A stretch of 63,914 nucleotides of DNA, counting the filler, from Candidatus Hydrogenedentota bacterium (GTDB lineage: Bacteria; JBFMHD01), in assembly GCA_040752395.1 (NCBI GenBank). It is 17 parts of 17 records of this genome, joined end to end, with 100 filler letters (N's around TTAATTAATTAA, not from the genome) between each part and the next. Parts side by side here need not be neighbours in the genome. Positions count along the whole stretch, not along the records: positions 6,153 to 9,080 come from JBFMHD010000284.1; positions 9,181 to 12,107 come from JBFMHD010000285.1; positions 12,208 to 15,116 come from JBFMHD010000286.1; positions 15,217 to 18,110 come from JBFMHD010000287.1; positions 18,211 to 21,060 come from JBFMHD010000288.1; positions 21,161 to 23,987 come from JBFMHD010000289.1; positions 24,088 to 41,573 come from JBFMHD010000029.1; positions 41,674 to 44,457 come from JBFMHD010000290.1; 9 more parts are not named here. One strand, written 5' to 3'. The notes below the pieces were generated by a model. It was not told where the DNA came from. It worked only from the letters and a program-made list of their open reading frames with translations, and did no database searches. Both the position numbers and the translations under genes were made by a program. Positions 8,767 to 61,309 of this stretch are shown in pieces. Position 1 is the first letter of the stretch. Each line of letters starts with the position of its first letter.

Positions 8767-9052
8767 AGAAGCAAGAGGCAAGATAATTGGGTTATTGCGT
8801 TTTTGCGCTCTACACAACGTATGAAAAACTGAAGATGATATGAAAAGAGTCACAAGTCGCAAGTCGTGAGTCAAAACAGGACTCAAGACTCAAGACTCAA
8901 GACTCAAGACTTTTCAGCAGGCTTTTGGCTTTTGGCTCCAGCCGGCTGTAGTCCGTAGCCTGTAGCCTGTCCTGACACCTCTCACTTCTTCCGTTATCTT
9001 GCTTCTTGCTTCTACTTGATATTATTATAGTTACAACGTTTTTCAGAGGAGG
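8767..9052 (+). repeat. Modular heptamer-hairpin/SD leader element, copy 1 (long form)
   Basis: GAGTCGT/GACTCAA arms, GGCTTTT/GTAGCCT arms, CTTGCTT array, ending TTTTTCAGAGGAGG before a possible GTG at 9056. Confidence 0.95.
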
Positions 9053-9180
9053 CAAGTGAATCTTGAGTCTAATTTATACANNNNNNNNNNNNNNNNNNNN
9101 NNNNNNNNNNNNNNNNNNNNNNNNTTAATTAATTAANNNNNNNNNNNNNNNNNNNNNNNNNNNNNNNNNNNNNNNNNNNN

Positions 9181-9339
9181 GCCGGGCCAGAAAGTTAAAA
9201 CCGAGGCTACTGGAGGCTCTATATCAGGGAACATATCTATGGGTAATTTTGTCAAAGAGACAATACCTAGCAGACAGATACCTAAGAAAAGCATTATTAT
9301 TGTCACGGGCTGGCTTACTGCAAACTCAGGTATCCTCAT
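9181..9339 (-). CDS. RND efflux permease (AcrB family), N-terminal fragment
   Basis: MRIPEFAVSQPVTIIML...LPIDMFPDIEPP; follows the membrane fusion protein gene. Confidence 0.85.
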
Positions 9340-9342
9340 CAA

Positions 9343-10518
9343 TTATAACCCCTTTACAATCTGAACCCGGGTTCCATCCTGGCGTATCCTGTTCTGACCC
9401 TTGATGATTACAACATCTCCTCTGTTTATCCCTTCTCGTACCTCAATCAGGTTCTCCTCTTGTATCCCCGTTTCTATATTTCTTAAAAAGGCTTTATTCT
9501 CAATTACCGTATAAATATAATATGTTCCTGTACCTGGCATTTTATTAAGCGCTTCGACGGGTATAACAAGAGCACTCTTTTCCCCCAAAAAAAGGTTTAT
9601 ATGTACAAACATCCCCGAACACAATCTGAAATTTTTATTAAGAATAATTATCTCTATTTTACCTGTTCTTGTGGCAGGATCAATCGTTGGAGAGATTATG
9701 GATATCTCCCCATTTATCCCTTTTTCCAGGTTGAATGCATCAGGTATTATCTCAGCTTTCATCTCTTTTTTCAAGTAAGGAAAATATCTCTCTGATACCC
9801 CGGTAATAACCTTTAATTTCTCTTCATTATTGATTCTCACCACAGGCTGGGCGATATTTGAGAGACTCCCTTTATCTATGAATCGTTCTGAGACAATACC
9901 TGAGATCGGGGCATATATTCTATGATACCGATCCAGAATCTCTACCTGATTAAGAGCTAATCCAGCTCGATTTATCTCTGATTCAGCCAGCTCTTTTGCT
10001 GCCATGGCAGCTTTGTATTCTGCCTCAATGTGGTCAAGCTTCTGGCGGCTAATTGCCTTATTTTTAAAAAGGTTCTCAAACCTCAGTTTATCTTTCTGGA
10101 TAGACTCAAGTTTTGCCTCAATTTCTTTCATCCTTGCTTTCGCAGAACAGAGTGTAGCCCGGGCTTCGTTTAGAGATGTTCTCACTGTCTCGTCTTCAAG
10201 TATAGCAATCGTATCACCCTGGCAGACCCTCTCCCCTTTCTCAATAAGAATATCTTTTATTATTTTATTGGGTACACGTGGATAGATATCAACAACTTCG
10301 TATGGTATTAAATCTCCGGTTAGTTCGAGTACCTGGTTAAGTCTCTGATATTCAGCTTTTACCACCTCGACTGGTATAATATCGATCTCCTCTATTATTT
10401 CAACTTTTTTATGTTTAAATTTTATATAATTTGATACTGTGTACCATGTGAAACCCACTATAACAATTAAAATAACTATATATATTAATCCTGATGTTAA
10501 TTTTTTAGAGTCTTGCAT
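9343..10518 (-). CDS. RND efflux periplasmic adaptor (membrane fusion protein)
   Basis: N-terminal TM, lipoyl half-motifs, IYAPISG, IDPATRT. Confidence 0.9.
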   Translation of the reverse strand: MQDSKKLTSGLIYIVILIVIVGFTWYTVSNYIKFKHKKVEIIEEIDIIPVEVVKAEYQRLNQVLELTGDLIPYEVVDIYPRVPNKIIKDILIEKGERVCQGDTIAILEDETVRTSLNEARATLCSAKARMKEIEAKLESIQKDKLRFENLFKNKAISRQKLDHIEAEYKAAMAAKELAESEINRAGLALNQVEILDRYHRIYAPISGIVSERFIDKGSLSNIAQPVVRINNEEKLKVITGVSERYFPYLKKEMKAEIIPDAFNLEKGINGEISIISPTIDPATRTGKIEIIILNKNFRLCSGMFVHINLFLGEKSALVIPVEALNKMPGTGTYYIYTVIENKAFLRNIETGIQEENLIEVREGINRGDVVIIKGQNRIRQDGTRVQIVKGL

Positions 10519-10591
10519 TATACTAAAACCTCCCCAAAAAAGTTGATAAGTTCAAGAGTATCGCGGTTATAAAGTGTATGGTATAGAATAC

Positions 10592-11932
10592 TCAGAATTC
10601 TGACGCCGTAGCTCGTTCAAGTTCAGCCTGAGAGATCAGATATCCATATAAAGCATTATAATAGTTCATCTCGGCTCTGGTTAAAAATGTCCTGGCATCA
10701 ATGACCTCAGTTGAGGTTGTCGCTTGTTGTTGATATTGTAAATTTGTTATGCGGAAGTTTTCTTCTGCCTGGGTAAGCGATTTTTTAGCAATTGATATAT
10801 TATCTTCTGCAACGCTTAGATTTAGATAAGCATCCTTTACCTCAAGTTTTATATTATCTGTTATTGAGTTGACCTTTTCCTGGAGGGCAAGTTTATCATA
10901 CTGGCATTTATCAATCTCTGCTTTTCGCTTACCCCAATCAAATAATATCCATTTTGCCTCTACCCCAATTATAGAATCATAGAACCTCCCAAAATCATAA
11001 TTTGTTGCTTTGAAATTATCACCTGTCTGTTTGTAAGTTCCAAAAAGAAAGATCTGGGGATAAAAACTACTTTTAACAAGTTTAGCCGACAGTTCAGACT
11101 GTTTTATATATGATTCTATAATTTTTATCTCAGGTCTATTTTTTATCGCTTTGTTAATAAGTGAAACCAGTTCATACTTAGCCGGGGTTAGCTTCAGGAT
11201 ATCTTCAACAATTAGCTCTTTATCAATATCCTGGTGAAGAAGGATATTAAGATAAGATACAGCCATTTTCAGATTGGACTCAGATTTTCTCTGGTTCTGA
11301 CTGGCATAAGAAAGGGCAACCTCTGATTTCAATAAATCATTATAAGCAATTATCCCCTCATTATACAAACTCCTGGCATCAGAGAGATGAGCCTCAAGTT
11401 GGGTTACCTCCTCGTGTGCGATATTAAGATACTTTTGAGCAAGCAGGATATTATAATAAGCAATCTTAACATTCTTGATAACGTCCAGCACCGCCATCTT
11501 TTTCTCAATATCTTTTATATTGATCCCGAGTTCTGCTACCTTAACCCTGGTTTTGAGAGCATAACCCGTGAATAATGGCTGTTTGATGGTAACATTATAT
11601 GTATAACTCTCCTCACCACCTACGGTAAACTCCATACCACTGAACACTGCCACAGGTGCATCTTTTAATTTTGTATATGAATATGATGCTAAAAGCTCAG
11701 GAAATCGGGAGGCATTAGCTGATTTATATTCATACCACGCTTTTTCCCGTGCATTTATAGCTTCTTTTATTACTGTATTATTTTCCAGAGCAAACTCGAT
11801 GGCTTTACTGAGGGTTAATGTATCATTATTATCTATACTCTGGAGAGGATAACTTACAAATAAAATAGGTAAAAAGACAACCAGTATAAATCTTATCATT
11901 GCACTAACCTTTCTCATATTCTTCAAATGCAT
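10592..11932 (-). CDS. TolC family outer membrane protein
   Basis: Signal peptide, LTLSKAIEFALENN, FPEL, QPLFTG OEP repeats. Confidence 0.9.
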   Translation of the reverse strand: MHLKNMRKVSAMIRFILVVFLPILFVSYPLQSIDNNDTLTLSKAIEFALENNTVIKEAINAREKAWYEYKSANASRFPELLASYSYTKLKDAPVAVFSGMEFTVGGEESYTYNVTIKQPLFTGYALKTRVKVAELGINIKDIEKKMAVLDVIKNVKIAYYNILLAQKYLNIAHEEVTQLEAHLSDARSLYNEGIIAYNDLLKSEVALSYASQNQRKSESNLKMAVSYLNILLHQDIDKELIVEDILKLTPAKYELVSLINKAIKNRPEIKIIESYIKQSELSAKLVKSSFYPQIFLFGTYKQTGDNFKATNYDFGRFYDSIIGVEAKWILFDWGKRKAEIDKCQYDKLALQEKVNSITDNIKLEVKDAYLNLSVAEDNISIAKKSLTQAEENFRITNLQYQQQATTSTEVIDARTFLTRAEMNYYNALYGYLISQAELERATASEF

Positions 11933-12080
11933 CTATTATTCTGTTTAATCCATCTAAAGAACTTTTCACTCTCTTATTATCCTATACTTTCGCACATTTT
12001 ACCTTAAAAAAATAAAAAGCCCCCGTATAATATTGACTACAATTAAATAATCAACACTATACAGAGGAAACTTCAATGTT

Positions 12081-12107
12081 TACTACACAGCAAAGTATAC
12101 AACCACC
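12081..12107 (-). promoter_or_regulatory. Repeated promoter cassette, partial copy upstream of the tolC operon
   Basis: Minus strand GGTGGTTGTATACTTTGCTGTGTAGTA, cut by the gap. Confidence 0.55.
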
Positions 12108-12307
12108 NNNNNNNNNNNNNNNNNNNNNNNNNNNNNNNNNNNNNNNNNNNNTTAATTAATTAANNNNNNNNNNNNNNNNNNNNNNNNNNNNNNNNNNNNN
12201 NNNNNNNAAGAGGATGACATCAAACGATTCCTTCAGTTTTTGTTCAGAGAAGAGGTCACCAGAGCAAGACCCAGAGCTAAAAATGTCTAAGAAATCACCA
12301 TCGTCGC

Positions 12308-12394
12308 TTTTGCGCTCTACACTATTGCGTTCTCTTGCTTCTTGCTTCTTGCTTCTATTTGATATTATTATAGTTACAAAGTTTTTCAGGAGAG
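12308..12394 (+). repeat. Leader element copy 2 (short form)
   Basis: TTTGCGCTCTACAC joined to the CTTGCTT array and TTGATATTATTATAGTTACAAAGTTTTTCAGGAG; ATG at 12407. Confidence 0.9.
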
Positions 12395-12406
12395 AAACAA
12401 TATATT

Positions 12407-15018: not shown

Positions 15019-15020
15019 AT

Positions 15021-15116
15021 TTAGCCAAACGGCAGAAAAAAAGCATGGCTCAGATTATCAGGGAGCTTGTCGATGAGCATATACAGAAGAGGGCAGGACA
15101 AAAACAGGAAGACCCC
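15021..15116 (+). other. Fragment resembling a CopG/RHH antitoxin
   Basis: Translates LAKRQKKSMAQIIRELVDEHIQKRAGQKQEDP; no start codon, at the contig edge. Confidence 0.5.
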
Positions 15117-15216
15117 NNNNNNNNNNNNNNNNNNNNNNNNNNNNNNNNNNNNNNNNNNNNTTAATTAATTAANNNNNNNNNNNNNNNNNNNNNNNNNNNN
15201 NNNNNNNNNNNNNNNN

Positions 15217-15472
15217 GAAACAGATGGATGAACGATTTACCGCTATGCAGAAACAGATGGATGAACGATTTACAGCTATGCAAAAACAGATGGATGAGCG
15301 GTTTGCTAAAATGGATGAGAAGTTTGAAAAGTTTGCTATTGCGTTGGCAAGGGTTGAGTCAAAAACAGACCTGCTTGTCGAACTCGTTAAAGATTTTAAA
15401 AAAATTGATACTTTTGAATTCAGATTAGTTCAGGTAGAGAAAAAAATAGAAAAACTTGTTTCAGCCGCTTAA
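15217..15472 (+). CDS. Coiled-coil repeat protein, partial, with 33-bp tandem repeats
   Basis: KQMDERFTAMQ 11-aa repeats; the contig begins inside the repeat. Confidence 0.7.
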
Positions 15473-16528: not shown

Positions 16529-16531
16529 TTT

Positions 16532-17605: not shown

Positions 17606-17653
17606 TTTAATTACCTTGTTATAAATATAGTCTTTTGGTCTGATTTATATTAA

Positions 17654-17968: not shown

Positions 17969-18082
17969 CCCCCCTTCGAAAAACATTGTAATTATAATAA
18001 TATCAAGTAGAAGCAAGAAGCAAGAAGCAAGAAGCAAGATAACGGAAGAAGTGAGAAGTATCAGGATGGACTTCGGGCTACG
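17969..18082 (-). repeat. Leader element copy 3, SD degenerate, about 100 nt upstream of rpmE
   Basis: TCCTGATACTTCTCACTTCTTCCGTTAT, CTTGCTT x4, ...GTTTTTCGAAGGGGGG. Confidence 0.9.
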
Positions 18083-18210
18083 AAATTAGTCTATAGTGTC
18101 AAAAAGTCGTNNNNNNNNNNNNNNNNNNNNNNNNNNNNNNNNNNNNNNNNNNNNTTAATTAATTAANNNNNNNNNNNNNNNNNNNNNNNNNNNNNNNNNN
18201 NNNNNNNNNN

Positions 18211-18352
18211 AAGTCGTGAGTCAAAACAGGACTCTAGACTCAAGACTCAAGACTTTTCAGCAGGCTCCGGGCTTCGGGCTCCAAGCCGGCTGTAGTCCGT
18301 CGCCCGGAGCCTGTACCCCGAATTATTAGAGTTACAGTGTTTTTCAGAGGAG
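18211..18352 (+). repeat. Leader element copy 4
   Basis: Hairpin modules plus the alternative 3' end CCCCGAATTATTAGAGTTACAGTGTTTTTCAGAGGAG; GTG at 18361. Confidence 0.95.
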
Positions 18353-18360
18353 AATTTATC

Positions 18361-20859: not shown

Positions 20860-20875
20860 AAAATCAGCCCTGTAA

Positions 20876-21026
20876 GTCAAAGAGTCGAGAGTCGTGAGTC
20901 ACAAGTCGCAAGTCGTGAGTCAAAACAGGACTCGAGACTCAAGACTTTTCATAGGGGGCTCCAGCCGGCTGTAGTCCGTAGCCCGTAGCCTGTAGCCCGA
21001 ATTATTAGAGTTGCGAAGTTTTTCGA
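20876..21026 (+). repeat. Leader element copy 5, SD absent
   Basis: Same hairpin modules; ends GTTTTTCGAAAT. Confidence 0.92.
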
Positions 21027-21160
21027 AATAGTGAGGGTCACAAGACCCGTAGTAGGGGGANNNNNNNNNNNNNNNNNNNNNNNNNNNNNNNNNNNNNNNN
21101 NNNNTTAATTAATTAANNNNNNNNNNNNNNNNNNNNNNNNNNNNNNNNNNNNNNNNNNNN

Positions 21161-23672: not shown

Positions 23673-23743
23673 GAAAAAGATAGGAGTTAGGAGTTCGTAA
23701 TAATAGATCCGAGCTTCGAACTCCGAACTCCGAACTTTTTTCG

Positions 23744-23987
23744 AAGGAGTACTCATGAGCGCGTTTGCGCTCTACACTATTGGGTTCTTGGGTTCTTGTG
23801 TTATTGGGTTATTGCGTTATTGGGTTATTGGGTTATTGGGTTATTGCGCTCTACACAATATATGAAAAACTAAAGATGATATGAAAAGAGTCGTGAGTCG
23901 TGAGTCGCAAGTCGTGAGTCAAAACAGGACTCGAGACTCAAGACTCAAGACTTTTCAGCAGGCTTTGGGCTTTTGGCTCCAGCCGGC
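23744..23987 (+). repeat. Leader element copy 7 (5' part, cut by the gap)
   Basis: AGGAG-ATGAGCGCGTTTGCGCTCTACAC, 8-nt TTATTGGG array, then the heptamer hairpins. Confidence 0.95.
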
Positions 23988-33611: not shown

Positions 33612-35381
33612 TTAAGGAAGCTGGGAGCAATACACGGACCACATAACCTGTTGCAAACGGTAGGTACCAAAATTAGGGATATTCAGTAGTTCATATTTGT
33701 CTTTGAAACCATTATTGGTTTTTCTATATTCAATTATTTTAGACGCAAAAACAGGACCTATTTCAGGGAGTAACTCTAATTCTTTTTGTGAGGCTTTATT
33801 TAAATCCATTTTGTATTTAACCTTTGGCTGCGGGTAGTAGATATTTGTAAAAAGTTTTTTAAGCTGGTCTGCTATCTCATAAGATTCAAAATACACATCA
33901 ATCTCGTAATTTTCATTAAATGCACTTGTAGTCCAGTTATGACTGCCTAAAAATATTTTATAGTTATCAACTATAACAAGTTTTGTATGAGTCATTATCG
34001 GTGATTCATCAAACCGCACTTTTATCCCGGCTTCTCTGAGATATTGATACGCTACTAAATTTTTTTCAAACATAGTCTCATCAAGTATAACCTCAATATC
34101 TATGCCTCTGTTTTTAGCATTCACAAGTTCCTGGAGGATTCTGCGCACAGGGTGTTCTTTTGAAGCACTCGTAGCCATGTAAAACATTATTACTTTAATA
34201 GAAAATTTTGCGTTTACTATACTTTCTTTTAAGTCCCAGAAATATTCTCCATCAGGTAAAATCCTGAGATTCGCTACTTTTATAAATCCTGGTAAATATC
34301 TTTCCGGCAGTTTAGTAATGGATACCGAAGAGCTAAAATATTCTTTGAAATGAAGAAAGATTTTTTGGTCCCACCCAAGAGACTTCGCCACGATAGATAC
34401 CTCATTATTTTTTATTAAAGCAGATTTTGAGAGATTGTGATTACCTATAAAAACGGTATAACCATCGATGATGACTACTTTATCATGCAGCTCTCTCTCC
34501 TGTATGTCCCATAATGTTTGTATATTATAGTTTTTTAAAAATTGTTGGGTTTTAGAATTACTTTTCAGTAATACATCATCTGGATTTTTTGGATTTTCAA
34601 GTAGAACCCTAACACACACCCCCCTTTTTTTAGCTGCTACTAATTCTTTTAATATTGTATTTACCGGGTTATCAAGCTCCTTACCCATAGTAATTGTATA
34701 CATTGAAATATCTATGCTCTTTTTTGCTTTTCTTATCTCGTCTGTTAATTCTTCGAGATATTCAGTATTTATAAGGGGTTTTACATAGAAGCCATAAGGA
34801 TATTCAAAATTGAGTTTGGGATACGTATTTATACGGATATATCTATCGATCTCTTCGAGTAATCTCTGCCAGAAGAAAATATACGTTATATAGATGAGCA
34901 AGAGACTGATAAGAAGTGAATAAAATCTGATTCTTTTTTCCGGATGGAATAATGTTATAAACAAAAATACAACGATTATAAATCCGAAGAGATAAAATAG
35001 AGGTATCTGAGAAAAAAGAAATTTTGAGAAATCTATAAGTTTGTACAGCCTATATTTTAATCTATAAGATTCGGTAACCTTAATTTTTTTTTGTTTAAGT
35101 TCTTTTATTATTTCTTTTTTAATGCTTTTGATGTATTCCTCAAGTTCGGGTTCTGCTAAATTCTTCTGTTTTTCAATTTTTTTTATTGAGTTTTCCAGTA
35201 CTTTTTTATCTTCTTTGGTTACAAGTAGATTGTTTATTTCAGAGAAAAAGACCTCGTCTTCAAATAACATCTCATAGATGCGGATTGAAGCGGTATCAAT
35301 TTCCGATCCCATTAAAATAAAAGAATTGTATCTGGCAAAAAATATTAGAATAAATACTAAGAATTTTATTATAGAAGGCAT
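33612..35381 (-). CDS. Membrane protein with two PLD (HKD) domains and a C-terminal ComEA-like HhH
   Basis: HDKVVIID, HTKLVIVD, LNKASQKELELLPEIG. Confidence 0.85.
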   Translation of the reverse strand: MPSIIKFLVFILIFFARYNSFILMGSEIDTASIRIYEMLFEDEVFFSEINNLLVTKEDKKVLENSIKKIEKQKNLAEPELEEYIKSIKKEIIKELKQKKIKVTESYRLKYRLYKLIDFSKFLFSQIPLFYLFGFIIVVFLFITLFHPEKRIRFYSLLISLLLIYITYIFFWQRLLEEIDRYIRINTYPKLNFEYPYGFYVKPLINTEYLEELTDEIRKAKKSIDISMYTITMGKELDNPVNTILKELVAAKKRGVCVRVLLENPKNPDDVLLKSNSKTQQFLKNYNIQTLWDIQERELHDKVVIIDGYTVFIGNHNLSKSALIKNNEVSIVAKSLGWDQKIFLHFKEYFSSSVSITKLPERYLPGFIKVANLRILPDGEYFWDLKESIVNAKFSIKVIMFYMATSASKEHPVRRILQELVNAKNRGIDIEVILDETMFEKNLVAYQYLREAGIKVRFDESPIMTHTKLVIVDNYKIFLGSHNWTTSAFNENYEIDVYFESYEIADQLKKLFTNIYYPQPKVKYKMDLNKASQKELELLPEIGPVFASKIIEYRKTNNGFKDKYELLNIPNFGTYRLQQVMWSVYCSQLP

Positions 35382-36844
35382 TAAGAGAGATTCTGAAACT
35401 CTTTATTATATTCTTGTGATATCTGATTATCTTTTATAATCAAACCATTCTCATCGTTTTTAGTTTCAGCGGAATAAGTCCAGTTATACGAACCTGTGAT
35501 AGTGGTTTCGCCATCTATTACCATAAATTTGTGATGTAAAAGACCGTTATTGGTATCTTTTGTAACATCTATTCCTTGTTTTTTCATTTCATAGTATGCG
35601 CTGTTCGGGTTATCAGTCTGCCAGGCATCAAAAACACCGTTAATTTTCACGCCTCGTTCATGGGCTCGAATAAGAGCATCTTTGATTTTATCATCAGTAA
35701 AAGTGAATACAGCGAAATTTATCTCGGTTTTAGCATTATCAATCAATTCAACAATTTTATTTCGATAATGATCAGTGGGTGAGAAATAGACTTCGACCCC
35801 AACCTCACGTGTCGGCGTAGCCTCGCATACGATATAATCTTTGATTTTATTGTAAGTCTTCTCGCCGATACCAGAGACTTTCTTTATATCAGAAGGTGTG
35901 GTAAAATCGCCGTTTTGTTTACGATAATCTATAATCCTTTGAGCAAGTGATTTATCTATACCAGGTAACAACATAAGAGTTTCAATGTTATCAGAATTGA
36001 TTGAGACTTTATTAGGGTCACCTACTGTAATAGTGAAACTATTATTAGTCGATTGGTCTTTAGATTTACCAAACTTCTGCTCTTCAAACATCTCAACAAA
36101 TTCCTGATGATATGCCTCTGCAACTTCTTTGGAGTTAAGAAAGACCATATTATTGTTATTATCGTATAAATCACTATTAGAGAAATTAGTAGAACCTGTT
36201 ATTACTTTCTCTTTATCAATAACAAAAAATTTATTATGAACAAGACCATCTCCATTATCAGTTACTATTTTTATACCTTGTGATTCTAATGCTTTATAAT
36301 ATTTCTGGTATTCAGGTTTATCATAATAGTCTTTTTCTACCACTATCCTGACGTTTTCTGGTCCGAGTCTATCAGCTGCGGCAATCAGGGCATCAACTAC
36401 ATCCTGATTACCTATTATATAAGCTACTACCTCTACAGAGGATTTAGCTTGATTTATATTCTGAATTAGTTTAGATGTGGGGGTTGCATCATTTTTTATA
36501 GGGTCAGTAAAAATAATATCGAGATTATTAGCCTCGCTTAAAGAAGAGACAACTTCTACTTTTAGATTACCAATAAGGGTATGTGACTTACCCTGGTTAT
36601 CAGTAAAACTTGTCTTCTTTTCTATTAAGACATCGCCGATATTGGTAAACTTTTTCTTGAAACTCTCTTCTTTAATTATATTTTCATCTTTATCATATAC
36701 TTTTAATTCATATTTTTCTGTTGAATTAACCTCAACACTTTGATCACCTGTTATTACTGCATAATATCCTGATTCTTCGTATAAAGCTGTAAGCCCTCCA
36801 GGGAATAATATAAAAAAGACAAGCAAAGACCCTATTATCTTCAT
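35381..36844 (-). CDS. Secreted protein with two PLD domains and an internal ComEA-like HhH
   Basis: Signal peptide, HNKFFVID, LPGIDKSLAQRII...VSGIGEK, HHKFMVID. Confidence 0.85.
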   Translation of the reverse strand: MKIIGSLLVFFILFPGGLTALYEESGYYAVITGDQSVEVNSTEKYELKVYDKDENIIKEESFKKKFTNIGDVLIEKKTSFTDNQGKSHTLIGNLKVEVVSSLSEANNLDIIFTDPIKNDATPTSKLIQNINQAKSSVEVVAYIIGNQDVVDALIAAADRLGPENVRIVVEKDYYDKPEYQKYYKALESQGIKIVTDNGDGLVHNKFFVIDKEKVITGSTNFSNSDLYDNNNNMVFLNSKEVAEAYHQEFVEMFEEQKFGKSKDQSTNNSFTITVGDPNKVSINSDNIETLMLLPGIDKSLAQRIIDYRKQNGDFTTPSDIKKVSGIGEKTYNKIKDYIVCEATPTREVGVEVYFSPTDHYRNKIVELIDNAKTEINFAVFTFTDDKIKDALIRAHERGVKINGVFDAWQTDNPNSAYYEMKKQGIDVTKDTNNGLLHHKFMVIDGETTITGSYNWTYSAETKNDENGLIIKDNQISQEYNKEFQNLS

Positions 36845-36958
36845 ATTGTTATTATATCTAAGATTAGAAATAAAGTCAAGTCTTATTTTAGAAATTTTTG
36901 TGATTCAGACAGTAGGGGGCACTTGCCCGAGAAATTCTTGTAAAAAATATTCCATTAT

Positions 36959-37110: not shown

Positions 37111-37302
37111 ACCTCATTTTTTAAAGACAGGTCTAAAGTCTAAAGAACGGGTCTTGTGACCCTCTTTACATTATATTGATTATATTGAAATTACAAAAAA
37201 TGAAAATCGAATTCTCGGTGCAAATCCAACAACCCCGGCACGCAATCAACCATTACCTGAAGAACCGGTATATTCGTACATACCTTGTGATGATGAACTG
37301 CA

Positions 37303-38777: not shown

Positions 38778-39779
38778 ATGAAAAACCAAATACCTGTAAC
38801 AAAACCTTATTTGGGTGAAGAAGAAATTTCTCTTCTTAGAAAAATTATAAAATCTGGGTGGGTTACACAAGGACCTTATGTAGAAAAATTTGAACAAAAA
38901 ATTTGTGAATATACAGGTGCAAAATATGCAGTTGCTTTAAATTCTTGCACTGCAGGTTTACACATAGCATTAAAAATTTTAGGGATAGGTCCCGGCGACG
39001 AAGTAATTGTGCCATCTTTCTCATTTATTGCGACAGCAAATTCAGTAATTCACTCAGAAGCAATTCCGGTTTTTGCCGATATAGATGAAAATACTTATAA
39101 TATTGATCCAAAAGATATAGAGAAGAAAATTACAAAAAAAACAAAAGCAATAATTCCAGTGCATCAAATAGGTTTACCATGTCAAATGGATGAAATAAAA
39201 AAAATCGCTAAAAAATATAAATTAGAAATAGTAGAAGATGCGGCTTGTGCCTTAGGTTCAGAATATAAAGGTAAAAAAATAGGAAATATTTCAGAAATTA
39301 CGGTATTTTCTTTTCATCCAAGAAAACTCATAACGACCGGGGAAGGTGGAGTGATTACAACAAACAATCATAGGATTGCTGAAAAAGCAAGGATGTATAG
39401 ATTTCATGGTCAATCAATTTCCGCATTCTAAAGACATAAATCAAAAAAGATAATTTTTGAGAATTACCCTATAGTAGGATATAATTATAAAATGACAGAT
39501 ATTCAAGCTTCTATAGGATTAAAACAGATGGAAAAATTAGATTTTATTTTAAAGAGGAGGAAAGAACTCGCTTTAAGATACAATGCAGTATTTGGTAAAA
39601 GTGAATTTTTTAAGATTCCTTATGTGCCTTCAAATTGTTCCTATAATTATCAATCATATATTTTAAAATTAACAAACAAAGTAAAAAAATCTCGTGATAG
39701 GATAATGCAAGAACTTTCAAATTTTGCTCCGCAAAACTTCACAAATACCAAAACCGTTAAGCGACATTTTGCCTGGTAA
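38778..39779 (+). pseudogene. DegT/DnrJ sugar aminotransferase, in-frame TAA at 39429-39431 and truncated 3' end
   Basis: EDAACALG, SFHPRKLITTGEGG. The frame continues after the stop (…GYNYKMTD). The tail is replaced by a half attC. Confidence 0.85.
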
Positions 39780-42600: not shown

Positions 42601-42848
42601 CCTCCTCTGAAAAACGCTGTAACTCTAATAATATCAAATAGAAGCAAGATAACGGAAGAAGTGAGAAGTATCAGGACAGGCTACAGGCTCCGGACCACAG
42701 CCGGCTGGAGCCAAAGGCCAAAAGCCTGCTGAAAAGTCTTGAGTCTTGAGTCTTGAGTCTTGAGTCTTGAGTCCTGTTTTGACTCACGACTTGCGACTCA
42801 CGACTCTTTTCATATCATCTTTAGTTTTTTACACGTTGTGTAGAGTGC
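42601..42848 (-). repeat. Leader element copy 9 (between ychF and ribH)
   Basis: GACTCAA x5; ends CAGAGGAGG, 9 nt before the ribH ATG. Confidence 0.95.
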
Positions 42849-43986: not shown

Positions 43987-44135
43987 AATATATCCTTATG
44001 AAGCAAGAAGCAAGATATTCGGTTATCGGTGAACCGAACACCGAACTTAAGAACTCCACCGAAAACTAAAAAAATATATTATAACTAAAAAAATTTTATT
44101 TACAATAAATTTTTAAATAATAAAATAAATGTATT

Positions 44136-47316: not shown

Positions 47317-47546
47317 NNNNNNNNNNNNNNNNNNNNNNNNNNNNNNNNNNNNNNNNNNNNTTAATTAATTAANNNNNNNNNNNNNNNNNNNNNNNNNNNN
47401 NNNNNNNNNNNNNNNNTTTAAATTTGTCTTTGTCTCCCCTCTCCCTATCTACTCCTACTTCTACTTGGACTTGGACTTAAAATTGGAGAAAGGCAAAAAA
47501 ACCCCAAAAAATCGCATAACTCCTTGAAAATCAATAGGTTAAGTCA

Positions 47547-47574
47547 AGTTAACATAATACAGATTATCAGAAAT
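47547..47574 (-). other. dif-like XerC/XerD site
   Basis: ATTTCTGATAA-TCTGTA-TTATGTTAACT, 11-6-11 layout with a near-canonical XerD arm. Confidence 0.75.
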
Positions 47575-48110
47575 TAAATTTCATAAGTTCTTGATACTCA
47601 ATGACTTATGAAAACCCTAAAAGTTTTTTGAACCGCCTAAAAACAGACCCTCAGGGAGACCCTAGGGGGAAATCAGATAACCTTAGGGGTCTCCCATATC
47701 TCTAGTATTTGGTGGTGGAAAAAAGCTTAAGAAATCAAGGGAATTGCAAAATTGAACCAAGAAAGGCTAGGAAAATCAAGGGTTTCAAGAGAAGGTGTCA
47801 AAAAGGCTAGTAAAATCAAGGGTTTTAAGGGGAGGTGCTGTTTTTTTGGCTGATTTTATTGGTCTACTCGGTTAGTATTTTGTTAGTATCCTGTAAGTAA
47901 TTTTCATATCTCCTTCATTTTCAATAACTTACGCATTTCCAATTTTTGTCTTGCCTGTGAAAAAGTATCCTCAAAACCCCAATAAAATGATGCCCTAAAA
48001 CCCTAATAATATCAAGGGTTTCCAAGCCTTCCCAAAAAATCACTTGACAAACAAAAAAATAAACCCAAAACCTCAATAATATCAAGCCTTCGCAAAGCTA
48101 AAAAAAATAC

Positions 48111-48139
48111 TTGACAAAATCAAGAAAGCATAGTATAAT
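48111..48139 (+). promoter_or_regulatory. Consensus sigma70 promoter
   Basis: TTGACA-17nt-TATAAT. Confidence 0.85.
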
Positions 48140-48256
48140 ATAGATAGTTAGATTAAAATGGACACTAGACAAAATCAAGAATCCAAAAAAAATCAGGGGG
48201 ATTGCCTCTCCGTGTCTGGTGTCCAGCAATCCCCCATATATATGGAGGTGAAAAAA

Positions 48257-50304: not shown

Positions 50305-50568
50305 CCTCCTCTGAAAAACGCTGTAACTCTAATAATCCGGGGTACAGGCTACAGGCTACGGACTACAGCCGGCTGGAGCCAAAAGCCAAAAGCCTGCTGA
50401 AAAGTCTTGAGTCTTGAGTCTCGAGTCCTGTTTTGACTCACGACTTGCGACTTTTGACTCTTTTCATACTTTGTGCCTCTGTGCCTTTCCTGTAGAGTAG
50501 AGCGCAAAAACGCAATAACCCAATAACCCAAGAACCCAATAGTGTAGAGCGCAACCCGCGCTCATAAG
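50305..50568 (-). repeat. Leader element copy 10
   Basis: ATGAGCGCGGGTTGCGCTCTACAC through TTTTTCAGAGGAGG; the downstream gene is lost in the gap. Confidence 0.95.
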
Positions 50569-50728
50569 TACTTTATACTTTTAAATTCTTTACCACCGCA
50601 CCAATCTCTTTAGATAGGTATTTATTCTATGCTACAATCTTTAAATTGTCAAGAGTATGCTTTGTCTGATGGAATACGTCTTATTAATCAGTTGACTTTT
50701 TTATGGGATATTTTATCTTAAATATAAT

Positions 50729-53023: not shown

Positions 53024-53159
53024 NNNNNNNNNNNNNNNNNNNNNNNNTTAATTAATTAANNNNNNNNNNNNNNNNNNNNNNNNNNNNNNNNNNNNNNNNN
53101 NNNTGGCACAAAGGATATTAGGGGATGGGTCATAGGGGATGGGGTATATTAGGGGTCGG

Positions 53160-53312
53160 GAGTCGAGAGTCGTGAGTCAAAACAGGACTCGAGACTCAAG
53201 ACTCAAGACTCAAGACTTTTCAGCAGGCTCCGGGCTTCGGGCTCCAGCTGGCTGGAGTCCGTAGCCTGTAGCCTGTCCTGATACTTCTCACTTCTTACTT
53301 TTTCATGGGAGG
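53160..53312 (+). repeat. Leader element copy 11
   Basis: Both heptamer hairpins, then a shortened end TTTTTCATGGGAGG; ATG at 53318. Confidence 0.92.
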
Positions 53313-53317
53313 ATTTT

Positions 53318-53986: not shown

Positions 53987-53989
53987 GTT

Positions 53990-55787: not shown

Positions 55788-55887
55788 NNNNNNNNNNNNN
55801 NNNNNNNNNNNNNNNNNNNNNNNNNNNNNNNTTAATTAATTAANNNNNNNNNNNNNNNNNNNNNNNNNNNNNNNNNNNNNNNNNNNN

Positions 55888-58570
55888 CCGAAGATACTTT
55901 GCTTTCTTGTTCAGGAAATAAAATCTATAAACATCGGGGAATATCACCAGAAATAGATAGCTATTTTGAAGTTTTTGATATCCCTGTTCCGAATTTTACA
56001 GGACTGACTATTGCTAATAACAATCTTATTTCTTGCGATGATGCAGGAAATAAGATAAGGGTTCATTCTGGGATTTCGGCAATAATAAATTCTTCTTTTC
56101 CCTCGCCTGCTTCAAACCCTTCTGGGCTTTATTATGACGGCATTGACCTTTGGAGCTGTGATAAAGGAACATCAAAGATTTATCATCATTCTGGAATATC
56201 AGCAACAATAACAGAAAATTTTGATAGCCCAGGGAAAATTCCAACAGGTCTTTCTTGCGATAATGCAAAAAATCTTATTTCTGGTAATTGTGAAAGATAT
56301 GGAAGATTTATTGCAGAAAGAAAGACAATAAATGCTGTTAATAAAGAAGCACCACAAATTTGTATATATAACAATATGATATATCTTGTATGGCATCAAT
56401 TAGAAACTTATGGAAGAACATATGTTGCTAAAATGAATTTAGATAGAACAGCTTTTTCTGTTATAAAAATAATTGATACAGCCTACACTGTTCATTTTAA
56501 ATTTCCTCAATTTTCAATTGTAAATGATAAAATATATGGTGTTACATTTGATTATATTGCAACAGAAGCAGAAAATATACATTCTTTTATTATGAATTTA
56601 GATGGAAGTGGGTATAGTATGGATACAATTTGGTCGATATCTACTGGAATATATGAGCTTCAATTTCAAATATATGAAAATACAAAATATTATTTAATTA
56701 CTTATAATTCTGGAGGTTATAGACAAATTGCTTTAGGAGTTTTACCCCTTTCAAGTCTCAGTGGTCTTTCTGCAGTAACATTAACAACTTCTTCTGTCCA
56801 TAAATATGATGTTCAATTTCATATATATAATAATAAGATATATTATGTATGGGTTGAAAATAATCATATTTGGGTTGCAACTTCTCAATTAGATAGAACA
56901 GGATTTTTTGCAGTTCAAAAAACTTCAACATCTTTTGAAAGGGCAAAACCTCAGTTGCAAGTTAAAGATAATAAAATTTATTATATTTGGCAACAAAAAG
57001 ATGCTTTAGGTATCTGGCAGTTATGGACTGCGGTAATGAATATTGATGGAACTGAATGGGAAGAAACTAAAAGGTCAAATACACTTACTCATTGTCAAAA
57101 TCCTCAATTATTAGTTGGAAATGATGGTATTTATTATGTTTTTCAATTCAATACAGGAAGTTATAACCAAATTTATACTGCTACTATTTCTTTAGATGAT
57201 ATAATAAATACTTTTATTGGAATAGAACGAACAAATGATTCTTATCATAATATTACACCACAATTTCAAAGACAAGAAAATAATATATATTATGTTTGGA
57301 TTAAACAGGAAGCTAATCATCAAATTTGGAGTGCAATAACAAATTTAGGAACTATTTTTGTCCATAAGCAAAAAAGCAGTTTAATAGACCGAAGTTATAT
57401 AACTTCTGATAATATTGATGACATTTATTACGATGGCACTAATCTTATTTCTTGCGATATAACTGCTAAAAAGATAACGATTTATGATGGAATAAGCAAT
57501 ACAATTAAAAATAGTTTTACAATATCTCACGAATCATATGGACTATCTTTTGCTTCTATTGTTAAAACATCAAATCTTCAGGTTGATATATGCGATTTTG
57601 CAATCTTAAACGATACTTTAATAATAGTTACGGGTAAAAAATGGCTGTTAAGATGGACAGGAAGCGGTAATTTAATTTCAAATGTGCCAACAACTTCATT
57701 TCAGCAATTTCCTGTAATAAAATATTGTAAAGTCTTCAAAAATGTTGCCATTGGAGTAGATATAAATAATCCTTCAAGGCTTAAATGGTGCTTCTGGAAT
57801 ATGCCAGATACTTGGTATGACAGTAGTTATATTGATATAGATAAGGATAATGGAGAAATTATTAAGGGATTAAGCTTATTTAGGAACGATTTGATTGTTT
57901 TTAAAGAAAATTACCTTTATAAAGTCTCTTATACAGGGGATGCTATGATTCCTTTCATTTATGACAAAATTGACAATGTAGGGACAGTTGGACATAAGAC
58001 TGTAGTTTTGGTTGAAGGCTTGCTTTATTTTATCGCAAAAGATGGGATATATATCTTTGATGGGGTATTATCAAAAAAAATATCTTTTTTAATTCCTAAT
58101 ACATTTGCTAGATTTTTATCGCAACATTACGATAAGATAGTAGCAATTGATGTAAAGTCTTTACATCAAATTTGGTGGACAATTCCAGAGCCAGAAATAG
58201 CTGGAAATGCTACAGTATTGATTTATGATTATTTCCTAAATTGCTTTTGGACATCTTGCCAGAAGGAAGCTAATTATTTCAGTTGTTTTGAATTTGTCAG
58301 TAATGAATATCTAGCAGGAGGGGCTAAATCTGCTGCTTATATTTACAAATTAAATGAAGGAGATACTGCAGATGATAGTGCTTATTTTGCAGGAATATTT
58401 TATAGTAAGCGATTAGATTTTGGGCTTCCAAACAAATGGAAGCAGGTTAGAAAAATATTTCTTGATGTAAAGGCTTCCGGGAATTATAATTTAGGTATAG
58501 CTGTAAAGGTTGATGATGGTTTGTGGTCAACTGAAAAAACAATAAGTTTGTTAAATTCTCAAGAAAGAAT
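55888..58570 (+). CDS. Phage virion stabilisation/tail-like beta-propeller protein, partial at both ends
   Basis: C-terminal DNGEIIKGL..FRNDLIVFKE...VGTVGH...LYFIAKDGIYIFDG segment plus repeated IYYVW blades. Confidence 0.6.
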
Positions 58571-58670
58571 NNNNNNNNNNNNNNNNNNNNNNNNNNNNNN
58601 NNNNNNNNNNNNNNTTAATTAATTAANNNNNNNNNNNNNNNNNNNNNNNNNNNNNNNNNNNNNNNNNNNN

Positions 58671-59112
58671 CATCATTAGGTATAGTAAATGCTGCTATAG
58701 TATGAGTAAATTGCAATGCAGCGTCTTGGTTATAATGTATAATTTTATAATTCTGCAGATTGATGCCGGTTATACCAATAAGCTCTACAAACTCTTGGGT
58801 ACCAGACTGTGTCCTTATTTCATTTATTCTAACCAAGGGTGTGGTTCCTGTTGGGGGGTTTGACATCACCTCGCTTATCTGTAAAGCTCTATTAGTCTTC
58901 ATTTTATTATAAAGTTTTTCAACTGCGTATGCTATGCCGTATTCAGCAGCTGCAAAAAGCTTTGCTTCTCTAAGAAAATTGCCAGCTACTACGATCTCTG
59001 ATAACATTATCTCAGAAAAAACTAAAGTTAACCCGAGTAAAATAAAGAGTATGTAGATAGCTAACGCGGTTGCAAATCCTTTGTTTTTTGTTAAATGATT
59101 AAATAATTTCAT
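58671..59112 (-). CDS. PilX-like minor pilin, partial
   Basis: NKG|FATALAI...FAAAEYGI. Confidence 0.78.
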
Positions 59113-59140
59113 AAAAAACTCTCCTTGCTACTCATTCACT

Positions 59141-59872
59141 TTAATAAAACCTCTTCACTTTCCAGCAATATGGCCGAATTAACATCGCCATCTTTTCAGT
59201 TGCGGTTCCAGCATCGTTCGTTCCTGTTAATTTGACTCTGATAAGCGGCAAAACACTTTTGGAGCCAGTGGCATCCGGGGTTCCATCACCACCAGCTTCC
59301 CAGTTAGCACTACTTAGTCCTGCAAGATTACTCCCACACTCTATAGTGAAATTTGTAATATTAATACCCTGAATATCAGCTAAATCAGGTCCTGTAATAT
59401 CACATAACGGATCAAGCTGGGTCTCTTTTTCAGTAGCAGCTGTGATACTCTCACTATTAGAAGGGTCTATTTTTCGCTGTAAACACCAGTGTTGAAAATC
59501 ATCATAATTAGGTGGTGTATATTGCTGATAGGTATAAGCTATTTCAACTATATCGCTTGCTACTGTTGATGCCATTCCAGAGCTTGCTCTCACACAATTA
59601 AATCTAACTTTAGAGCCTGTGGCTCTAAACTCAGGGTGTGCGGTACCAGAATTAATCGGGTCAAGTATAGGGATAGCAGCCCGCAGGTCTTTACCTAATC
59701 TGTCAAGCGATTCTCGCATCTCGATTAAAATATCAAGATTTTTATTAGCGTTTCTAAAGATTTTAACGTACTGGGCAAAGAGTCTGCCAAGCGCAATAAA
59801 TATTATAGCTGCAACAACAATCGAGACAAGCAGCTCAACAAGCGTCATACCTTTTTTAGATTTTAATCTCAT
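59141..59872 (-). CDS. PilW-like prepilin
   Basis: KKG|MTLVELLVSIV...LGKDLRAA. Confidence 0.85.
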   Translation of the reverse strand: MRLKSKKGMTLVELLVSIVVAAIIFIALGRLFAQYVKIFRNANKNLDILIEMRESLDRLGKDLRAAIPILDPINSGTAHPEFRATGSKVRFNCVRASSGMASTVASDIVEIAYTYQQYTPPNYDDFQHWCLQRKIDPSNSESITAATEKETQLDPLCDITGPDLADIQGINITNFTIECGSNLAGLSSANWEAGGDGTPDATGSKSVLPLIRVKLTGTNDAGTATEKMAMLIRPYCWKVKRFY

Positions 59873-59880
59873 AATAACGA

Positions 59881-59955
59881 CTCCTCTGAAAAACATTGTA
59901 ACTCTAATAATATCAAATAGAAGCAAGAGGCAAGAGGCAAGAAGAACGTTGTGCC
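59881..59955 (-). repeat. Leader element copy 12 (short)
   Basis: CTTGCCT/CTTGCTT array plus the conserved 3' end with GAGGAG. Confidence 0.92.
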
Positions 59956-59984
59956 TCTAACTACTATCTCATCTCATTATGTCT

Positions 59985-60398
59985 TTAATTATTTATTATA
60001 TCATTAAAAATAATACACGGTATAGTATCTGAGAAAGAATCGCCAGCTGAAATTTTTATATCAGCTTGTCTTACTATATCACTCGCAGAACCATCATCTA
60101 CATCTTTTACAGTGTACTGCCAGGCCCAGATACTCGGTATGCCTTCAAGACCTAAAGTATTTGGATCACTATTAAAACCACCGCTATTACTAGAACCAAG
60201 AGAAAGAAACCCTAATGTTTTAATATATGAAGCAGCTGAATAATATAATATAGATGCATAGATTTGTTTTTCATTGTTAGTATAGGCTTTTAAACTTATT
60301 GGGATAGCTCTTGTTACACCTACAAGACCTATGCCGATTATAATAGAAGCTACCAGAACATCAATAAGCGAAAACCCTTTTTTAGTTTTTAAGTTCAT
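59985..60398 (-). CDS. PilV-like prepilin
   Basis: KKG|FSLIDVLVASII. Confidence 0.8.
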   Translation of the reverse strand: MNLKTKKGFSLIDVLVASIIIGIGLVGVTRAIPISLKAYTNNEKQIYASILYYSAASYIKTLGFLSLGSSNSGGFNSDPNTLGLEGIPSIWAWQYTVKDVDDGSASDIVRQADIKISAGDSFSDTIPCIIFNDIINN

Positions 60399-60404
60399 AA
60401 AAAA

Positions 60405-60615
60405 ACTCCTCTGAAAAACGCTGTAACTCTAATAATTCGGGGTACAGGCTACAGGCTACGGACTACAGCCGGCTGGAGCCCCCTATGAAAAGTCTTGAGT
60501 CTTGAGTCCTGTTTTGACTCACGACTTGCGACTTGTGACTCACGACTCTTTTCATATCATCTTTAGTTTTTCATCCTTTGTGTAGAGCGCAACCCGCTCT
60601 CATGACGACTCCTCT
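60405..60615 (-). repeat. Leader element copy 13 (both ends visible)
   Basis: AGAGGAGT-cgtc-ATGAGAGCGGGTTGCGCTCTACAC ... TTTTTC-AGAGGAGT. Confidence 0.95.
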
Positions 60616-60644
60616 ACTCAAGAAACAAGATGCAAGATAACAGT

Positions 60645-61199
60645 TTACGAAAAAGCTGGGAACGGAGTATTCCCGCCTTTTTTATAGTATCTTGGTTTTT
60701 GTGTCATATTACTCGGGATTATTGTTCTATATTTGGATTCTTGACCCGCGGCATAAGGTACATCTTTTGGTGCATAGTGGATTGAGCCAGGGGGGTCACC
60801 ATTATCTCGCTGAACCGTGCCATGACTGTTAAATTTATATACATAATCAGTAGTAATATTAGTAACACCAGCTAAGTTTATTCTCTTTGGTAATGTTCTT
60901 ACCATATATTTCTGCTCATCGGTATAAGCATTATCCTGATCTTCATCAATATAAACCTCCATTTTTTCATCCTGTGGTTTCATAACAAGATAAACATCTC
61001 TATTCCTTACTTTTGATAGCCGCGAGCATGCATTTATTGTGGATAAAATTATTCTCTGAGCAGAATCCATATCCATAGTGCTCTCCATTTGTTTAAATTT
61101 AGGCATTGCAGCAATAGCTGTTATGCCTATAATAGCAATAACTATAATCAATTCTAATAGTGTAAACCCTGTTTGTGCTTTTTTATTTTGAAATATCAT
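60645..61199 (-). CDS. FimT/GspH-like prepilin
   Basis: TG|FTLLELIIVIAIIGI...MPKF, FNSHG. Confidence 0.85.
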   Translation of the reverse strand: MIFQNKKAQTGFTLLELIIVIAIIGITAIAAMPKFKQMESTMDMDSAQRIILSTINACSRLSKVRNRDVYLVMKPQDEKMEVYIDEDQDNAYTDEQKYMVRTLPKRINLAGVTNITTDYVYKFNSHGTVQRDNGDPPGSIHYAPKDVPYAAGQESKYRTIIPSNMTQKPRYYKKGGNTPFPAFS

Positions 61200-61207
61200 A
61201 GTAGTAT

Positions 61208-61309
61208 CTCCTCTGAAAAACATTGTAACTCTAATGATATCAAGTAGAAGCAAGAAGCAAGAGGCAAGAAGCAAGATAACGAAAAAGAAAGATAACGAAA
61301 GAAGCAAGA
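61208..61309 (-). repeat. Leader element copy 14
   Basis: CTTGCTT array plus conserved end with GAGGAG; ATG at 61199. Confidence 0.92.

Follow-up and report, generated by a model that had tools for sequence, protein, structure and literature searches.

How do genes with nothing in common come to carry the same strong Shine-Dalgarno (SD) sequence immediately in front of their start codons? This question is raised by a dispersed repeat (the element) in a 63,914-base stretch of the Candidatus Hydrogenedentota bacterium assembly GCA_040752395.1 (the window), in which 17 contigs are joined by artificial N/TTAATTAATTAA linkers. The element is represented by 14 copies in 62.5 kb, on short contigs that break at repeats, and by one copy outside the window, on a contig here called L002. 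Our best explanation, to which we assign a probability of roughly 60%, is that the element is a lineage-specific mosaic intergenic repeat acting as a gene-start cassette, of the kind described as REP2 in Neisseria and IR-A/IR-B in Borrelia. The feature is real and striking, and from it we infer a promoter, an action of the hairpins in RNA and a way of spreading, all considered below.

Ribosome-binding sites at the 3' end of the element

The element terminates in a 31-nt end module, ATTATTAKAGTTACANNGTTTTTCAGAGGAG, composed of an AT-rich stretch, a U5 run and GAGGAG, for which the window holds ten matches at ≤3 mismatches, against none expected from 100 shuffles. A start codon follows GGAG at a distance of 4-12 nt in 10/10 end modules, eight of which precede clear genes with starts 7-12 nt after GGAG, namely those for a REC-GGDEF protein, a DPD-like oxidoreductase, DegP, a macrodomain protein, RibH and three prepilins. 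Pfam domain starts fit these assignments, with the REC receiver beginning at residue 6, Fer4_20 at residue 9, RibH at residue 14 and the prepilin N-terminal methylation motif at residues 4-8 in the three prepilins. The remaining two end modules stop 29 and 31 nt before a contig edge, with candidate starts 4-11 nt after them, and the DUF502 gene carries a deleted end form, TTTTTCATGGGAGG, followed by 5 nt and then ATG. A first-pass annotation of this DNA had placed a terminal GGAG(G) shortly before clear start codons, and this is what we found, for the eight intact modules as well as for the DUF502 variant and, with candidate starts, for the two copies at contig edges. Three ends lie away from any start (17969, 20876 and an inverted fragment at 8733), and it is these that are degenerate. 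Furthermore, L002, which belongs to a different public assembly, begins inside a copy, with a hairpin, a join (H2 and G2, defined below) and the end module, and the ATG of a small membrane open reading frame (ORF) lies 9 nt after it.

Several observations indicate to which side of the junction the SD belongs. The core CAGAGGAG is identical in 9 of the 11 copies compared (window and L002), the conserved U5-CAGA runs directly into it with no variable junction, and similarity between copies continues unbroken through TTTTTCAGAGGAG and ends right after GGAG(G), while the spacer from GGAG to the start varies, both in length (4-12 nt) and in sequence. Because the similarity ends right after GGAG while the spacer varies, the SD appears to be borne by the repeat; that the repeat, and not the target gene, brings the SD, and hence the donation of a ribosome-binding site (RBS), is well supported by the sequences. 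The comparison with other genes points the same way, since an SD of at least 5 nt is present in 7/8 element genes (5-7 nt) but in only 5/47 other ORFs (≥100 aa, with the start of the longest ORF taken), and an SD of at least 4 nt in 17/47 of the latter versus 8.6% at random positions. Among the genes of the window the element SD is the strongest, most of those without the element lacking an SD.

Several non-element genes show a TATAAT-like box 6-20 nt before the ATG, in several of them at 6-8 nt, and no SD (36845-36890, 39460-39491, 48100-48157), an example being TTGACT-17-TATAAT-6 nt-ATG before 35381-36844, which suggests that many mRNAs of this organism are leaderless or have very short leaders.

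Modular architecture and distribution of copies

Upstream of the end module the element is a mosaic, whose modules were traced by a regex scan for each module and by blastn of the fullest copy against the window, each copy being oriented by its end module. The modules are strictly colinear in 14/14 copies, with several of them lacking in short copies, and copy length ranges from ~75 to ~270 nt (Table 1). These scans recovered all 14 copies that had been noticed at first, built from the same modules in one order, and no further ones in the window. The order is: a cap hairpin (GTACTYATGAGCGCG...GCGCTCTACAC); an array of 0-9 octamers of the TTATTGGG type, closed by a second GCGCTCTACAC; linker C, terminating in GAAAAACTRAAGATGATATGAAAA; hairpin H1, with 3-6 xAGTCxx units, an AAAACAG loop and 3-6 GACTCxx units; hairpin H2, with 1-4 GGCTxxx units around AGCCGGCT and then 3-4 GTAGCCx units; a join of one of two types; and the end module. 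The G1 join consists of GTCCTGAYACYTCTCACTTCTTCCGTTAT, (CTTGCTT)1-4 and CTAYTTGAT, and the G2 join of GTACCCCGA, given also as GTACCCCGR, without a CTTGCTT array. In addition, an 8-nt inverted repeat (TGAAAAAC / GTTTTTCA) connects linker C with the end module. In the short copies (12305, 59881 and 61208) all that is left is a cap remnant together with the CTTGCTT array and the end module, and the junctions of these copies resemble internal deletions of the long form.

Each copy is marked by substitutions and unit numbers of its own. Counts vary between copies in each array (H1 3-6 per arm, H2 1-4, CTTGCTT 1-4, octamers 0-9), and the arms of H1 and H2 are unequal in unit number both within one copy and between copies; these unequal and variable numbers point to slippage.

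Table 1 Copies and fragments of the element in the window.
Feature	Position	Strand	Content and context
Decayed G1/end-module fragment, inverted	~8733..8785	-	Abuts stop of glycosyltransferase gene 7637-8728; aligned by eye; CTTGCTT at 8769-8782
Long copy	8783..9051	+	Octamer remnant, cap, linker C, H1 (4/5 units), H2, G1 with (CTTGCTT)2, end module; contig stops 29 nt on
Short copy	12305..12394	+	Cap, (CTTGCTT)3, extended -10-like box, end-module variant CAGGAGAG; REC-GGDEF ATG 12407
G1 copy, degenerate end TTTTTCGAAGGGGGG	17969..18110	-	Cut by contig end; ~100 nt upstream of rpmE
G2 copy	18211..18352	+	H1, H2, GTACCCCGA, end module; DPD-like oxidoreductase GTG 18361
Copy with degenerate end AGTTGCGAAGTTTTTCGAAAT (G2 type)	20870..21025	+	H1 (6/3 units), H2; contig stops 21060
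G1 copy, cut at H1 loop by contig start	21161..21327	+	DegP ATG 21339
5' half of full copy	23749..23987	+	Cap hairpin from GTACTCATGAGCGCG, ~9 octamers, second cap, linker C, H1, start of H2
G1 copy, cut in H1 by contig start	24088..24264	+	Macrodomain gene ATG 24276
Complete copy inside contig, ychF/ribH spacer	42602..42848	-	Cap remnant, linker C, H1 (4/6 units), H2, G1, end module; RibH ATG 42591
Isolated (CTTGCTT)2, without end module	44001..44014	-	Just before ychF start, downstream of promoter-like site and a different heptamer hairpin
Fullest copy (G2)	50306..50571	-	Cap hairpin, 4 octamers, second cap, variant linker, H1, H2, G2, end module; contig stops 31 nt past GGAG
Variant copy	53155..53312	+	H1, H2, first part of G1, deleted end TTTTTCATGGGAGG; DUF502 ATG 53318
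Short copy between two prepilin genes	59881..59955	-	(CTTGCYT)3, extended -10-like box, end module; ATG 59875
Complete G2 copy between two prepilin genes	60406..60610	-	AGAGGAGT on both flanks; ATG 60398
Short copy before first prepilin gene	61208..61309	-	(CTTGCYT)4, TGATATCAT, end module; ATG 61202; cut by contig end

Wherever a downstream gene is visible the copy points the same way as that gene, as had been stated in the first-pass annotation; the rule does not extend to the inverted fragment at ~8733-8785, which points into the 3' end of a gene. The copy at 17969 is separated from rpmE by that gene's own TTGACA promoter. The copy at 20870 begins 11 nt past the stop of the DPD-like gene, the one at 23749 follows the recO terminator, with an SD-like AAGGAG just before its cap, and a decayed G1-like stretch (60611-60640) lies beside the copy at 60406.

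The contigs of the window, sixteen of 2.5-3.0 kb and one of 17.5 kb with a GC content of 30-39%, end in or near copies conspicuously often: ~11 of the 34 contig ends, read by eye, fall within a copy or at most ~100 nt away, as is expected when an assembler meets a high-copy repeat. Considering that the window is made of contigs mostly 2.5-3 kb long, many of them ending in the repeat, and that L002 is binned with a genome otherwise lacking the element (45% YchF identity), one could suspect that the repeats or their adjacency to genes are products of a fragmented metagenome bin in which contigs are chimeric or collapsed. We find this hardly credible, however, as three copies are complete inside contigs with sensible neighbours (ychF-ribH-nusB and the prepilin cluster), substitutions and unit numbers are particular to each copy, an independent assembly (L002) has the module before a gene as well, and contig breaks are what true repeats are expected to produce.

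The 5' end of the element has a start-like arrangement of its own. The cap opens with ATG, preceded by an SD-like GGAG in two of three copies (23752-23862, 50464-50565 (-) and 60572-60604 (-)), and short hydrophobic ORFs of 36, 33 and 10 codons run from this ATG to an end in or near linker C. A conserved small ORF was considered and dropped, since frame and length differ among the three copies, and on sequence grounds this ORF is probably no gene. The SD and ATG at the element's own 5' end suggest that units have been joined at SD motifs. The idea that the arrays are decoys for GANTC methylation or restriction was likewise abandoned, as GANTC occurs 142 times elsewhere versus 186 expected, which is no notable avoidance.

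Hairpins and heptamer arrays

The full copy folds better than its shuffles, with z = -3.6 for the sense strand. H1 is predicted to form a run of 5-6-bp helices with GAGTC/GACTC cores, broken at each heptad and closed by TATGAAAAG/CTTTTCATA. A function of H1 as classical intrinsic terminator was dropped from consideration, because it has only four U, which are paired in the stem with the upstream A-run. For H2, a hand-written symmetric pairing leaves 83% of cells paired, versus 20-53% with the partner slid.

Heptamer units also occur in the window in other settings. The recO terminator (23681-23745) is a hairpin of heptamers, (TAGGAGT)2 ... (AACTCCG)3, followed by T6, which suggests that this genome makes general use of heptamer-array hairpins, outside the element as well as within it. 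The ychF leader (43987-44110, minus strand) comprises the promoter-like TTGTAA-16-TATAAT, a GTTCGGT-unit hairpin (~44014-44042), (CTTGCTT)2, AAGGA and ATG, and thus has an element-like layout in other sequences, without the end module. A pyrimidine-rich (CTTATCC)4.6 array at 5767-5815 lies directly before AAGGGACAG-ATG, the likely start (near 5812) of a pseudopilin-like ORF.

The variable arrays also bring to mind a contingency locus or rheostat, in which slippage changes the number of units and thereby tunes prepilin and other genes, as at hmw, where the (ATCTTTC)n hairpin is described as transcribed, cut by RNase III and setting expression (PMC12721329). In our data, unit numbers differ between copies in every array, three copies precede prepilin genes and contigs break inside arrays, all of which would fit such a role. 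Nevertheless, we think it unlikely as the main explanation, considering that differences between paralogous copies are not the same as variation at one locus within a population, that the genes downstream mostly have housekeeping functions (RibH, DegP, a DPD-like enzyme) and do not encode surface antigens, and that the arms change independently, so that only the shorter arm sets the length of the hairpin.

Promoter or transcribed leader

Whether the hairpins are part of the mRNA at all may depend on the type of join. An extended -10-like box, TGATATTAT (once TGATATCAT), is present in 8/8 G1 copies, at a constant distance of 21 nt before GTTTTTC. It agrees with TGnTATAAT, the extended -10 form, at 5/6 hexamer positions and occurs in 0/4 G2 copies of the window (18211, 20876, 50305 and 60405); the background of the motif in the window is 0.74 per kb per strand. 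As the box lies only 21 nt before GTTTTTC, the hairpins of G1 copies may lie upstream of the transcript start. Behind the G2 copy 50306-50571, TTGACA-17-TAGAAT, an 11/12 sigma-70 promoter ~60 nt upstream of the cap, points into the copy, which fits a reading as 5'-untranslated region (5'-UTR), and just upstream of the G1 copy 42602 there is a promoter-like site that matches at 9/12 and has TG. On the simplest reading of these sequences, G1 copies can start their own short leader with an unpaired SD and G2 copies are transcribed through. The element had at first been described as a portable 5'-UTR that installs its own RBS; of this description we retain the dispersed modular repeat without terminal inverted repeats (TIRs) whose 3' end carries the RBS of unrelated genes, while a 5'-UTR that comprises the whole element may hold for only some of the copies, given the position of the G1 box.

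In thermodynamic predictions for the full-length leader, the CU-rich G1 stretch CTCACTTCTTCC pairs with the SD, which has a mean probability of being unpaired of 0.00-0.17 in three of the four folded G1 copies and of 0.49 in the fourth (24088), compared with 0.21-0.68 for a short leader starting at GTTACA; for copy 24088 and the G2 copies, predicted SD access does not differ between the full and the short leader.

Masking of the SD would suit a shared cis-regulatory leader, that is, a regulon in which transcription covers the whole element and access to the SD is governed by an RNA-binding protein, for example of the CsrA, S1 or Csp type, or by alternative folding, so that the genes downstream would be co-regulated. 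To the masking predicted in 3/4 folded G1 copies may be added the promoter-like sites upstream of the whole elements 50306 and 42602, and A-GGA motifs in both the H1 loop and the SD, which we take to resemble the CsrA consensus. Moreover, REP2 genes (REP2/CREN) are described as co-regulated (PMC3184786). GA-rich and CU-rich segments pair readily by chance, however; H2 shows no covariation (see below), and Rfam gave no match to the full copy even at E up to 1. The short copies lack both hairpins, the module content is so uneven that a common RNA switch is unlikely for all copies, and the downstream genes are functionally unrelated. Taken together, we regard the regulon as possible but doubtful.

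Proposed mode of action and its weak points

If the element is a gene-start cassette, the U-rich tract and the strong SD would raise translation initiation of the following gene. In the G1 variant, (CTTGCTT)n followed by CTAYTTGATATTAT would supply the extended -10 promoter TGATATTAT, with a transcript starting in or near GTTACA and carrying a leader of ~30 nt with a free SD. The G2 variant, with GTACCCCGA and no promoter, would be transcribed as a whole from an upstream promoter, as structured leader or intercistronic spacer. The long and imperfect hairpins H1 and H2 would probably work at the RNA level, whether as a barrier, as a terminator, as a stabiliser or as an RNase III site, uncoupling the gene from upstream transcription, and their heptamer unit number would change by slippage. 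Copies would spread by recombination or duplication at short homologies such as the SD, not by a transposase, and those no longer serving a start codon would decay.

A bolder form of this model, which we regard as improbable, is an SD-anchored copy-and-paste cassette that would recombine at SD microhomology and turn SD-less or leaderless genes into SD-led ones, with G1 and G2 giving a promoter or a masked-SD leader, respectively, and the hairpins serving as slippage-adjustable rheostats of RNA processing or termination.

A number of points weigh against the gene-start cassette. Its function at gene starts is read from sequence; the sample of 14 copies in 62.5 kb plus L002 is small; and start codons were partly picked by their distance from the SD, which is somewhat circular. 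For the promoter, a sigma-70 scan detected no sense -35/-10 pair inside the element, and the claim is weak in that it has one conserved motif, which a 40-nt module would contain by chance in ~3% of cases. For the hairpins, the antisense strand folds at least as well as the sense strand (z = -3.9), so that DNA, or the other strand, could just as well be where they act. Covariation, which the first-pass annotation had recommended testing, gave no signal for H2, 274 of 500 shuffles reaching the observed count, and RNAalifold retained only 11 invariant pairs there. The structure is present, but the predicted folds do not establish selection, strand or molecule of action. Finally, "spread" and "decay" are terms that we infer from the copies, the former only from their near-identity.

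Mobility, spread and search for relatives

An inverted-repeat scan of three full copies returned the internal hairpins and the one 8-nt pair mentioned above, and no long TIRs flanking the element, in keeping with the initial description. Likewise, there is no consistent target duplication; a flanking direct repeat, AGAGGAGT, is seen at one copy only (60406-60610), and it is the SD itself. The element thus has neither the TIRs nor the target-site duplication of a MITE, a miniature transposable element with inverted repeats. It had been stated that no transposase is present, which does not hold for the window, as a DDE transposase gene (PF13701) lies at 3772-5091; blastn of the full copy against the window found nothing in the contig of this gene, which shares no sequence with the element. 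An ORF of 503 aa without Pfam match (62018-63529) also lies on a contig that shares no sequence with the element.

These results bear on the view that the element is a selfish, non-autonomous mobile element (MITE, IS200/IS605- or REP-type) which inserts at pre-existing RBSs, so that GGAG would be the target's and the gene would gain nothing from the element. In favour of this view are the many copies, their near-identity and the breaking of contigs at them; subterminal hairpins without TIRs are typical of single-strand transposon derivatives, and the window does contain AGAGGAGT on both flanks of 60406-60610 as well as a DDE transposase. Yet CAGAGGAG is invariant in 9/11 copies and joined to U5-CAGA without a variable junction, such an SD is rare in non-element genes, TIRs and consistent target duplications are lacking, the transposase contig has no sequence in common with the element, and the mosaic of internal deletions fits recombination better than transposition. 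Overall, we judge insertion at existing RBSs to be quite unlikely.

REP, BIME and REPIN sequences are ~20-40 nt GC-rich imperfect palindromes, usually located at the 3' ends of genes and associated with a RAYT. The hairpins of the element are heptamer arrays of 60-80 nt, its copies are anchored at gene starts, and the window contains no RAYT. Integron gene cassettes are promoterless, point in the same direction next to an integrase and have at their 3' end attC, an imperfect palindrome with core sites of the form RYYYAAC...GTTRRRY; this class was rejected, since no core sites were found at the ends of the element and no integrase in the window, and the neighbours are housekeeping genes (ychF-ribH-nusB).

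Searches outside the window revealed few traces of the element. As proposed at the outset, Rfam was consulted, and no known family matched, neither at the gathering threshold for the window nor at E up to 1 for the full copy. Plasmid and phage collections gave no blastn match, viral contigs scanned with the H1 loop gave 0 matches, and metagenome contigs gave only two chance matches to the end-module pattern. One metagenome contig (L011) has, at 190-212, a 23-nt identity to the end module (GTTACAATGTTTTTCAGAGGAGG) before an anti-sigma-antagonist-like gene, which we take as chance because no other module is present. Among the matches listed for genome contigs, the end-module pattern had one true match (L002) and one chance match (L001). 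The genome holding L002 (G001) contains a single copy and belongs to a different organism from that of the window: its YchF is 45% identical, and it gave no match to a 16-kb stretch beyond 66% paralogs. The search of related genomes that had been suggested was extended to the 24 phylum-mates of G001, all distant (YchF identity ≤47%), in none of which the end module was found.

Comparison with known systems

The first-pass annotation knew of no named family with this design, a view that is not borne out. We found that Neisseria REP2 and Borrelia IR-A/IR-B are described with a like architecture by Delihas 2011, who summarises Parkhill 2000, Morelle 2003 and Dunn 1994 (PMC3184786). In that account, they are dispersed intergenic repeats of ~120-180 bp located immediately upstream of genes, with no TIRs and with two stem-loops near the 5' end, followed by promoter, RBS and ATG (PMC3184786). 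The element resembles them as so described in having no TIRs, two internal hairpins, H1 and H2, towards the 5' end (lacking in the short copies) and an RBS directly upstream of unrelated ORFs in 10/10 end modules and L002. It differs in that the described REP2 and IR repeats include the ATG, whereas the element stops at the SD and leaves spacer and ATG to the gene, in that a promoter-like box is predicted only in its G1 variant, and in that its body consists of optional modules of 7- and 8-nt tandem arrays with variable unit number. The relation is a likeness of design by description and not family membership, the organisms being unrelated.

Other systems share single traits with the element. 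BOX of S. pneumoniae (boxA, n x boxB, boxC) and BIMEs are ordered composites of modules with variable internal unit number, and like the element they are intergenic, form structures and have no transposase of their own. To our knowledge, they are neither anchored to start codons nor suppliers of an RBS, and their units are of 30-60 nt and not heptamers. TAACTGA heptamer arrays in marine Beggiatoaceae, Cyanobacteria and Bacteroidetes point at start codons a few nt away, with functionally unrelated downstream genes, in a host genome described as SD-poor (25% of genes), and a role in translation has been proposed (MacGregor 2015, PMC4679880). As described there, these simple arrays replace the SD, which only ~10% of the regions have (PMC4679880), whereas in the element a strong SD follows (CTTGCTT)n, itself one module of a larger hairpin-bearing mosaic. 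At hmw1A of H. influenzae, the (ATCTTTC)n repeat of the 5'-UTR is reported to be transcribed, to make up one arm in a long hairpin and to be cut by RNase III, with processing and repeat number setting the expression of a surface-structure gene (PMC12721329); that report concerns a single locus with one repetitive arm and describes no RBS donation, in contrast to the dispersed family seen here. PeSL (promoter-early stem-loop) cassettes, small regulatory repeats of T4-type phages, lie between unrelated genes and unite a terminator stem-loop with a promoter, and recombination from copy to copy shuffles genes (Arbiol 2010, PMC2839356). In the description given, they are phage-borne, much shorter than the element and without heptamer arrays, and their promoter and terminator have been shown experimentally. 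By sequence, the element is assignable to none of REP2/IR, TAACTGA, hmw1A and PeSL.

Repeats that donate promoters and RBSs to unrelated genes are rare, REP2 having been called "a unique class" by Delihas, in whose account the origin and the mode of proliferation of REP2-like repeats are open questions (PMC3184786). The family studied here appears to be very abundant, with the assembly broken every few kb, and its near-identical copies mark it, as far as sequence can tell, as young; it also shows visible deletion intermediates and two join variants, of which only one has a promoter-like box. It is therefore a good natural system for learning how gene-start cassettes spread and whether they alter the translation initiation of a genome, and it ties together heptamer arrays beside start codons and long heptamer hairpins in 5' leaders. 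The SD-anchored copy-and-paste cassette, if true, would propagate itself and, across the whole genome, rewire how both transcription and translation are initiated.

Further observations in the window

The palindrome GGGTCACAAGACCC occurs twice, at 21035-21048 (+) and 37149-37162 (-), with 0.11 expected; the former copy lies right after the degenerate end of the 20876 element. The contig start at 6153-6290, just upstream of an O-antigen-ligase-like gene, is very GC-rich, with GCG and GGGG runs in a genome of ~33% GC, and may be foreign or chimeric. A gene-poor region of ~740 nt (47417-48157) contains a 40-nt tandem repeat (47762-47837), palindromes of the AGACCCTAGGG type and AATAATATCAAG(G/C) motifs that recur beside TTGACA boxes.

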